Below, one piece after another: positions 46,479 to 49,082 of a DNA stretch of 64,000 nucleotides. Below the pieces are notes generated by a model. It ran no database searches and was not told where the DNA came from. It worked only from the letters and a program-made list of their open reading frames with translations. The DNA is taken from the NCBI GenBank assembly GCA_000002435.2, contig CM018793.1. One strand, written 5' to 3'. How positions within the stretch are numbered: position 1 is the first letter of the stretch; each line of letters begins with the position of its first letter. The DNA comes from Giardia intestinalis. Its lineage: Eukaryota. The translations under genes were made by a program, and so were the position numbers.

Positions 46479-46925
46479 GCGGTGTGCCTAGGACTGGCTT
46501 GGCTTATTTATTAGTATGTTGTAAACATAAGAAGGAAACCTGTGAACTGATCAGTACTAGAGAAAAGCCATGTCCAGGCCAGCCCCGGCCATCCCCCGTG
46601 GTAGGGCGAACCGATGCATTGGAGAGTTGCATCAAGTCACGCGCTTTTGGAAACACCCACTCTACTTCAGTGGCGTGTTACATAGTCAGATCCCCAATAC
46701 CGGATTAGGGCACCGGGCCTCAAGGGCTGTTCACAATCGACTGAGCAATAAACTACGTACGGAACTGAAGCCAGACGAGTCAGGGCTTGCTCACTGTAGC
46801 CATCTACTGGGAGCATAGCTTCTAAGAAGGCCGAGTGCCGCCCTCCCACAGGGTCGACAGGGCGCCTATCGACCATATCTCAACATGCACTCCCCATTGC
46901 AAGCACAACATTCGGTACACAGCGG

Positions 46926-49082
46926 GTGGCGGAGGCGGACCCTCTGAGGCGGCACCCACTGCTGTGTGTAGGAACCACGCTTGCAGTCACACTCGTAGCG
47001 CCTTGCCAGCCAGACGGAGACCACGCCGCGAGCTGCCAGACCGACAAGTGCGAGACGGTCGGGTACTCCGAGATCTGCACCGAGTGCAGGGCCGGGGGCG
47101 TCCCGGTCGGCGGCTTCTGCTGGCCCCCCGGCACCCCCCAGGCCGCGGCGGCCGGGTGCACCAGGGCAGACGGGACCGCGTTGGCGGGGTCGGATACTAT
47201 CTGCGGGAAGTGCGGGGACGGGTACTTCCTCTTCATGGGCGGGTGCTACAAGACGAGCCAGTGGTCTGAGATCTGCACGGCGGCCGACAAGGGGGTGTGC
47301 ACCACCTGCAAGGCAGGCGCCGCGTATCTATTCCAGAACCCGGCCAGCCCAGTAGCCCCTGGCAACGAGTGCGTGCTTTGCTCGGACGTCGCTCCGCGAG
47401 ACGGAGTCACGGGGGTGGCGGGCTGCTACACATGCACGGCGCCAGGTGGCGGTACAGGGGCTGCCACGTGCACTGCATGCCAAGGAGGGTACGCCAAGAA
47501 GGGCGATGCATGTGTGCAATGCGGACCCGGCTGTTTGACGTGTGAGTCTGCTACTCCGACTCAGTGCACCGCCTGCCCCAAGGGGAAGTTCCTGAAGGGG
47601 ACTGAGTGTGTAGAGGCTAGTGGATGTGGTAGTGATAGCTATGCAGATCCAAAAGTAGACAAGTGCAAGGCCTGCGCTACTGACATAGCTGACTGTGCCA
47701 CCTGTGAGTACAATGCAACTATTAGTCAACCACAATGTAAGACCTGCAGCAGTAGCAAGATAGTGAAGACAGCGGCAGACGGGACGACGACATGCGTTGC
47801 GGAGGGAGAGTGCACTAGCACTCATTTTATTGATCAAACACCTCCAAAGGCTTGTGTCCTATGTGGCGATGATGCGCGAGGCGGCGTTGCCGGGTGTAGC
47901 AGCTGTCCAGGCAAGGATCAATGCTCTGCCTGTTTAGCTGGGTATATAAAAAAGGGAAGCGGGAACTCAGTTACCTGCGACCCTTGTGGCGAGAATTGCG
48001 CCACCTGCACTCAAGCTGGAAATGATAAGTGTGATACATGCAAGCCAGGGTACTTCCTGAAACAACCCGGCTCTGCTGGTAAGTGCTTCGCCTGCGACAG
48101 TAAAGCCGACAATGGCATAGAGGGGTGCTCCCAATGTAACAGCGGCCTAACCCCTACATGCACCGATTGCAAGTCCAACTATCGCAAGGAGGGAACCAAT
48201 CCGGTGAAGTGCACAAAGGTCTGCGAGGACCCCACGGCCTGCGGGGGGACGTCTGGGGCCTGCGGGGCGGTCGTCGTTGACAGCGCCGGGGCGTTCTCCC
48301 AGTACTGCTCGCTGTGCGGAGACCCCGCCACGTTCCCCATCGATGGGGTCTGCACAGGAACTAAGGGTGACAACACCTGCGAGAACGGCGTCTGCACCCG
48401 GTGTGCTGCCGGGTTCTTCCTGTACATGGGCGGCTGCTATGATGTGTCGAAGGCTCCTGGCAGCCACATGTGCAAGACCGCCGAGGGAGGGAGGTGCACC
48501 GCCCCCAGCGAGAACGGCCGGTACTTCCTGGTCCCGGGGGCATCCAATACTGATCAGTCTGTCCTGGCCTGCGAGAACCCCCTTGGCACAGTGATAGGGG
48601 CTGGCAGCACCGCTAAGGCATATGTGGGAGTATATGGCTGCACAGCATGCACGGCCCCAGCAGCGCTAGAGGCTCCTGGCATGACCCCTGCCACATGCAC
48701 AGCGTGTAGCGGCAACAACAAGCCCAACCTGGCTGGGAGCGGGTGCTTCACCTGTACCGTTGACGGATGCTCGCACTGTGGAGCAGGCGGCAAGTGCGAG
48801 GCCTGTACCAGTAAAGACCAGAGGCCGAACACAGACGGCTCCCAGTGCATCGCCTGCAGTATCGACGGGTGCGTCAGGTGCAGCGAGGAGAACAAGTGCG
48901 GCCGGTGCGGGGACGACTACAGGCTGGAGGGTGAGGCGTGCGTGTCCACTAAGCCCAGCGGGGGCAACAGGAGCGGCCTCAGCACAGGCGCCATAGCAGG
49001 TATCTCCGTCGCTGTGGTGGTTGTCGTGGCTGGCCTTGTGGGCTTCCTCTGCTGGTGGTTCATATGCAGAGGGAAGGCATGA
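46926..49082 (+). pseudogene. vsp: Second VSP copy (inverted duplicate): same coding sequence from APCQPDG to CRGKA, but no in-frame ATG and no canonical signal peptide. Silent cassette, pseudogene or non-canonically initiated
   Basis: The track's start at 46926 is GTG. Reading upstream in frame reaches a TAG at 46797 without any ATG. The first in-frame ATG is ~100 codons inside the Cys-rich domain. Homology to copy 1 begins at 46998. The AGTAAAC poly(A) signal at 49090..49096 is retained. Confidence 0.6.

Follow-up and report, generated by a model that had tools for sequence, protein, structure and literature searches.

A variant-specific surface protein (VSP) gene of Giardia intestinalis WB (assemblage A1) occurs twice, head-to-head, in a 64-kb window of chromosome 5 (the whole stretch of DNA analysed here), and the second of its copies has no start codon. 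Very probably, copy 2 is an untranslatable VSP pseudogene, the body of which has been homogenised with those of its partner and of a small VSP subfamily, through recombination or gene conversion. The pseudogene status of copy 2 is itself already known, as it is annotated in the reference and belongs to a well-known class. New here is the finding of the start-less junction, at which a leader without an ATG meets the VSP body, in assemblage A2, where it occurs in two contigs of isolate DH and in one metagenome scaffold.

An inverted VSP pair with one start-less member

The sole long repeat in the window is an inverted pair with arms of 2111 nt each, arm 1 at 38037-40147 on the minus strand and arm 2 at 46988-49098 on the plus strand (identity unbroken from 46998), which hold the two VSP copies. 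A base-by-base comparison of the WB arms over 46998-49098 found 2 differences in 2101 nt, i.e. 99.9% identity, at 48950 (C/T) and 48971 (A/G). Each is synonymous and lies at a third codon position, and the protein bodies of the two copies are identical. In the 10 nt preceding 46998, 7/10 positions are matched between the arms; beyond these, identity is ~25% and the sequences are unrelated. The arms are separated by a spacer of 6840 nt (40148-46987), which has the ATG, signal peptide and upstream region of copy 1 at its left end and the 520-nt start-less leader of copy 2 at its right end.

Copy 1 is the intact gene GL50803_00111732 (38053-40179, minus strand), which encodes a protein of 708 aa with a signal peptide, a CXXC-rich ectodomain, a transmembrane segment and a CRGKA tail. 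The protein is 100% identical to XP_001707628.2 / KAE8305807.1 and matches the Pfam VSP family PF03302 (E=2e-43). Its ATG is located at 40179-40177 and its stop codon at 38055-38053. The start region reads cactaTAATGTTGCTGATTGCA, translated MLLIALHLVTSILAAPCQ, and the signal peptide is MLLIALHLVTSILA. Around the ATG is a VSP initiator element, TAATGTT (40175-40181, minus strand), which is of the PyAATGTT type found in 135/136 WB VSPs in a published survey. Both 'taatgtt' and the same signal peptide are given for GL50803_00111732, together with a count of 31 CXXC motifs, in Table S1 of Rodriguez-Walker et al. 2022 (bioRxiv 10.1101/2022.03.07.483299).

Copy 2 lacks the ATG and the first 14-15 codons of copy 1. 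Its identity to copy 1 starts at 46998 (gcgCCTTGCC), with GCG preceding CCT TGC CAG. The frame is open after a TAG at 46797-46799, with zero in-frame ATG codons in 46800-47234; the first is found at 47235 and corresponds to Met 80 of the mature part. Out-of-frame ATGs at 46516, 46570, 46614 and 46885 each open only a short open reading frame (ORF), and no PyAATGTT initiator is present at the copy 2 start region. The sole classical alternative start in the frame is a GTG (46926-46928, plus strand), from which the ORF would be 718 aa long. Both copies have the VSP hallmarks of a cysteine-rich ectodomain with many CXXC motifs and a C-terminal transmembrane segment with CRGKA, ending ...GLVGFLCWWFICRGKA*, whereas an ATG in PyAATGTT and an N-terminal signal peptide are found in copy 1 and not in copy 2.

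The original prediction for this locus had credited copy 1 with an ATG and a signal peptide, traced homology in copy 2 only from the region coding for A-P-C-Q, and described the copy 2 frame as ATG-less back to the TAG at 46797 with GTG as its only opener. Translation and the TAATGTT context bear out the first of these observations, and the base-by-base comparison and frame analysis the other two. It had further held that the copies were kept identical, which is correct to 99.9% but overlooks the two synonymous differences, and that the signal peptide was lost exactly at the repeat boundary. The ATG is indeed missing, but there is no clean cut, as copy 2 has a hydrophobic, signal-peptide-like leader of its own and of the same length.

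In RefSeq, copy 2 is annotated as the pseudogene GL50803_00d111732 (pVSP; 46959-49082, plus strand, 2124 nt), which starts ctgctgtgtgta (window 46959). It is listed as an 'unspecified product (pVSP)' in Table S6 of the survey by Rodriguez-Walker et al., and Table S7 gives a sequence that begins ctgctgtgtgtaggaaccacg, with 'N' for both ORF and signal peptide (bioRxiv 10.1101/2022.03.07.483299). The 'd' in such gene ids denotes a duplicate, and a pVSP is defined as a VSP without a proper start codon or signal peptide, of which there are 208 in WB (Xu et al. 2020, PMC7000408); copy 2 fits this definition. The WB annotation of 2007, XP_001707628.1, started at the internal Met at 47235 (MGGCYKTS), which is expected for a start-less copy.

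The start-less leader of copy 2 (46797-46997, plus strand) doubles as the upstream region of a divergent HCMP-type gene. Its last 15 codons, PLLCVGTTLAVTLVA (46953-46997, plus strand), are in register with MLLIALHLVTSILAA of copy 1, with CCA at the position of the ATG. This stretch has the same length as the copy 1 signal peptide, Leu-Leu at positions 2-3, and a Kyte-Doolittle mean of 2.28 compared with 2.39 for the real VSP signal peptide, a level found in <1% of background windows. Judging from hydrophobicity, length and register, the PLLCVGTTLAVTLVA leader is probably a decayed signal-peptide coding region. At 46996-46997, the GCG of copy 1 and of every A2 start-less copy is replaced by GTA in WB copy 2 (CpG to TpA), and these two private changes, located just outside the perfect identity, show how far the last conversion event reached on the 5' side.

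Arm identity at the other end runs 16 nt past the TGA and stops together with the VSP-specific extended poly(A) signal, ACTTAGGTAGTAAACGC (49082-49098, plus strand, in copy 2; 38055-38037 for its counterpart in copy 1), on its last base. The consensus of this signal, ACUUAGRUAGURAAYRY, is specific to VSPs and pVSPs, and the signals of both copies are given in Table S6 (bioRxiv 10.1101/2022.03.07.483299). An origin of copy 2 as a processed pseudogene (retrocopy) was considered and rejected, as neither arm is followed by a poly(A) tract.

Age of the junction and probable homogenisation of the arms

The DH contig AHGT01000044 (L001) contains a minus-strand HCMP gene, the same leader and a VSP body, and is 98% identical to WB 46400-47300 including the junction. 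The same leader and start-less junction were also found in DH contig AHGT01000026 (L002) and in the ENA metagenome scaffold ERZ28584860 (L004), and HCMP orthologues adjoin the start-less VSP in both L001 and L002. A third DH contig, AHGT01000153 (L003), starts exactly at the junction. Within WB, a second pVSP, GL50803_0050130 (P0124), which is known here from its table sequence, begins at this junction as well (supplementary table, bioRxiv 10.1101/2022.03.07.483299). An orthologue with an intact ATG, which the original prediction had taken as a sign of sequencing error, was found in none of the A2 sequences available. Since the junction is common to WB and A2 sequences, it is real rather than an assembly error and, on this comparison, older than the A1/A2 split. 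Short-read A-type contigs (L006-L008) end within or just short of the VSP arm and are uninformative on leaders.

The leaders of L001, L002 and L004 are each 96-97% identical to that of WB, and CCA occupies the ATG position in 4/4 leaders. L001 has GCG in place of the GTG of WB, the frame upstream of ~46845 is shifted between WB and A2 by a 1-nt indel, and the substitutions between WB and A2 are mostly non-synonymous. The leader therefore shows no sign of conservation as a coding sequence, as far as these comparisons can tell. Damage was also seen in the start-less copies themselves: GL50803_0050130 has a Cys changed to Tyr, and L001 has lost 1 nt.

The arms are more alike within the WB genome than between WB and DH. 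In their alignable parts, WB and DH arms share 94.7-96.1% identity, while the three DH arms share 97.3-97.4% among themselves and the single-copy flanks share 97.5-98% between WB and DH. At the 2-2.5% divergence of the flanks, ~40-50 differences would be expected between the WB arms, compared with the 2 observed. Near-identity of the WB arms, set against divergences of 4-5% between WB and DH arms and of 2-2.5% in the flanks, would require recent homogenisation of the WB arms, that is, concerted evolution by gene conversion. The two remaining differences point in the same direction. At 48950 and 48971, copy 1 has the states of L001 and copy 2 those of L003 and L004, and because each state is common to a different DH paralogue, the two sites mark a short exchanged patch of shared polymorphism and are not errors. 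The bodies are mosaic, with alignment columns 815-1340 occurring in two haplotypes that are only 55% identical, and the L002 arm carries a third C-terminal type. Such mosaic bodies imply recurrent homologous exchange, and the greater similarity within a genome than between orthologues implies that sequence is transferred between copies; the mechanism and the direction of copying between the arms we infer.

Under the favoured explanation, the body of copy 2, comprising ectodomain, transmembrane segment, CRGKA and poly(A) signal, would be repeatedly overwritten from its partner and from subfamily members. Such overwriting could keep copy 2 open and near-identical to copy 1 without selection on its own product. 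The exchange tract would be bounded by homology, with a 5' limit where the leader diverges, in the last signal-peptide codons, and a 3' limit where the poly(A) element common to all VSPs ends. That copy 2 is not translated is suggested by its missing ATG and initiator, together with the near-leaderless mRNAs of Giardia. Of the two options offered by the original prediction, the RefSeq pVSP annotation, the A2-shared junction and the near-identity of the WB arms support the first, a silent pseudogene maintained by gene conversion.

Several points weigh against this explanation. The nucleotide match between leader and signal peptide is not significant (12-13/32, P ~0.04-0.13). The 1-nt 'frameshift' of L001 lies within a C-run and could be a sequencing error, and the DH assembly is a fragmented draft, in which contigs over a 2-kb repeat may be chimeric. 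Moreover, the product initiated at GTG would have a plausible n-region and hydrophobic core, which on sequence grounds leaves its translation a slight possibility.

Alternative explanations

It is conceivable, though we regard it as unlikely, that the start-less leader and VSP body, divergent to the HCMP gene, are no mere debris but are maintained as a module. This arrangement persists in at least two loci, in A1 and A2 alike. If true, the module could provide the expressed gene with a protected back-up template, or read-through transcription of the inverted repeat could yield double-stranded RNA that silences VSPs.

Also unlikely is that one truncated duplication, arising recently in the WB lineage, explains the identity, with no continuing conversion and a break that fell by chance in the signal-peptide codons. 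The 2.1 kb of near-perfect identity with abrupt ends are what such an event would leave, and in WB recent duplications account for 6.9% of the genome (Xu et al. 2020, PMC7000408). However, the junction lies at the same base in the A2 isolates and at the second WB locus and thus predates the A1/A2 split, while the 2 differences between the arms fall far short of the number expected from flank divergence and are both shared polymorphisms. A more recent copying event into the pre-existing junction would, by definition, be homology-bounded conversion.

Copy 2 could also be a working VSP with a non-AUG start, at the GTG at 46926 or at a CTG (46944, 46959 or 46962), and with LLCVGTTLAVTLVA as its signal peptide. 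Its frame is open from 46800, the 13 residues before the junction match a real VSP signal peptide in hydrophobicity (2.28 vs 2.39), and the basic residues RRH precede them. Against this, the GTG is replaced by GCG in L001, the PyAATGTT element of nearly all WB VSPs is absent, and WB has a single Ala before Pro, which gives a predicted cleavage site with Pro at +1; a Pro at this position blocks signal peptidase. Non-AUG initiation is, to our knowledge, unreported in Giardia. Giardia mRNAs are described as being translated best with leaders of ~1 nt (Li and Wang 2004, cited in PMC5124965), and the reference curators rejected copy 2 as a gene. A non-AUG start is very unlikely on this evidence, and non-canonical initiation, the second option of the original prediction, finds no support in the GCG of L001, the missing PyAATGTT or the absence of an intron motif near the start.

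An assembly or sequencing artefact, such as a mis-joined collapsed repeat or a dropped ATG, is highly improbable. Identical VSP pairs have formerly been suspected as assembly artefacts in published work, but the same leader-to-body junction occurs in three independent assemblies made with other technologies, and XP_001707628.1 already began at Met 47235 in 2007. Finally, cis- or trans-splicing of an ATG exon from further upstream to the body is scarcely conceivable. In its favour, an ACACAG that is in phase with the frame ends at 46922 and a GTATGT is found at 46514, but the Giardia 3' intron motif CTRACACACAG is absent from the plus strand of 46479-46997 at <=2 mismatches, the GTATGT is preceded only by ATG CGG TGT GCC TAG, which offers no usable ATG exon, and zero new introns were found genome-wide by Xu et al. 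2020 (PMC7000408).

Related systems and surroundings of the pair

Since the description of vsp1267, identical inverted VSP pairs have been a known feature of Giardia, and their number is put at 14 (Adam et al. 2010) and in later work at 19-20. As described by Adam et al. 2010 and Xu et al. 2020, they resemble the present pair in that one VSP occurs twice, inverted and near-identical, with abrupt ends, and 4-7 of them share its head-to-head orientation. The pairs described have two complete ORFs, whereas here one member is start-less and the arms differ at 2 sites. Their identity is reported to extend 139-729 bp into the flanks, whereas here it runs from 42 nt inside the coding region to 16 nt past the stop. 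Their spacers are given as 2.2-3.8 kb of non-coding sequence, or up to 6.3 kb with a reverse-transcriptase remnant, and contain at most such a remnant or a pseudogene, compared with 6840 nt and an intact gene of 1687 aa at this locus. The small ORFs of our spacer had no Pfam matches and thus gave no evidence of a retrotransposon remnant as in other head-to-head pairs. The GL50803_00111732/00d111732 pair is absent from the list of pairs in Table 2 of Xu et al. 2020 (PMC7000408).

Like other Giardia pVSPs, copy 2 retains the CRGKA tail, the transmembrane segment and the extended poly(A) signal. Most pVSPs are found in arrays, at contig ends, or with stops or frameshifts, whereas copy 2 has a full-length open body that shares 99.9% identity with an intact gene at a distance of 6.8 kb. 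A further 'd'-tagged pVSP in Table S6, GL50803_00d41401, is listed next to a VSP of the same number, GL50803_0041401, and shares its poly(A)-signal sequence. If this is a start-less duplicate of an intact VSP, the arrangement described here is not unique in WB.

A further parallel is offered by the pVSP arrays of Giardia muris, which consist of bodies without start or signal peptide that exchange sequence with complete VSPs and are proposed to be gene-conversion reservoirs (PMC7641422, cited in bioRxiv 10.1101/2022.03.07.483299). The arrays are described as long, subtelomeric and composed of diverse fragments with the potential for new variants, whereas here there is a single copy and the exchange makes no diversity. 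A likeness to Borrelia vls and to Trypanosoma VSG pseudogenes can also be drawn, in which promoter-less or start-less copies are retained near an expressed gene and gene conversion connects the two. In the present pair, neither unidirectional transfer nor variation is seen, and a silent donor would differ from the expressed copy, whereas copy 2 differs from copy 1 by two synonymous changes only. VSP switching in Giardia is described as epigenetic or post-transcriptional and proceeds without copying into an expression site, unlike switching by silent cassettes.

Copy 2 has little importance beyond bookkeeping, yet the pair shows clearly, and within sharp bounds, how a functional VSP and a start-less copy evolve in concert, and its precise tract limits provide a concrete case of how recombination reshuffles VSPs. 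It also illustrates that an open, full-length and near-identical frame in Giardia need not be a gene. Reads and peptides of GL50803_00111732 are inseparable from those of the pseudogene except at the leader and the two single-nucleotide differences, which concerns VSP counts, RNA-seq and proteomics.

Inside the spacer, divergent from copy 2, lies a gene for an HCMP/CRMP-type cysteine-rich EGF-like membrane protein of 1687 aa (41415-46478, minus strand), with weak EGF-family Pfam matches. An AT-rich stretch, ttatttattaGTATGTTGTAAacataag (46500-46530), is located directly upstream of the HCMP start, the minus-strand ATG of which is at 46478; on the plus strand it reads ATGTTGTAA, with a VSP-like ATGTTG and a stop codon immediately after. 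This stretch is probably the promoter or initiator of the HCMP gene. Bidirectional promoters are common in Giardia, and if this one is bidirectional, sterile transcripts across copy 2 could arise. The HCMP product measures 1687 aa in WB, 1463 aa in L001 (1424-5815) and 1686 aa in L002 (4494-9554). DNA identity to WB is 92% in L001 and only 83-88% in L002, although L002 has the orthologous outer flanks, and these comparisons indicate rapid evolution of the HCMP gene, with changes in its length.

To the right of copy 2 are a 79-aa NEK kinase remnant and then a NEK/ankyrin gene of 993 aa (50136-53117). The remnant (MADNGNNAFSLSAVTPTIPPFTFKELHERLNGVLGRDATGVVYSLEGYPSLAVKEILLEGLDRSSVDA...; 49600-49839, plus strand) resembles the N-terminus of an 865-aa NEK/ankyrin kinase (L003:2645-5242), which follows the VSP arm in DH contig 153. 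Homology ends in WB after ~68 residues and, because the NEK N-terminus is cut off there in WB, the comparison points to a WB-specific rearrangement breakpoint between ~49805 and 50136. Overall, the WB locus seems to be composed of pieces that lie on three DH contigs.

In L002, the start-less leader is joined to an arm bearing the 3' flank of copy 1, and the HCMP gene and leader are inverted relative to the WB flanks. The L002 orthologue of the NEK gene at 50136-53117 (3356-4530, set against window 41415-41452 and 52240) is only 295 aa long, and ~290 nt of unique sequence, absent from the window, link this truncated NEK gene to the HCMP 3' end. Possible origins of this structure are a recombination between arms that inverted the spacer, combined with a deletion of ~6.5 kb, or a chimeric contig across a collapsed 2-kb repeat. 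Within the unlikely module reading given above, the arrangement would hint that recombination between arms flips the 6.8-kb spacer and so swaps which arm owns the ATG.

In the assemblage E isolate P15, the locus of the best homologue, P0004, was rejected as a counterpart because it is non-syntenic. The syntenic slot, located via the 393-aa left-flank gene, has neither an HCMP gene nor a second VSP copy and contains one unrelated, ATG-bearing VSP; this comparison shows only that the VSP pair is specific to assemblage A. The VSP in the P15 slot (ACVC01000224, 10805-12208, minus strand; L009) encodes 467 aa starting MLVGLLLVCAAIWA... and contains an exact internal tandem duplication of ~66 residues (CAAGCKTCNPGDQACTECTDSSHN...RTPSVG, present twice).

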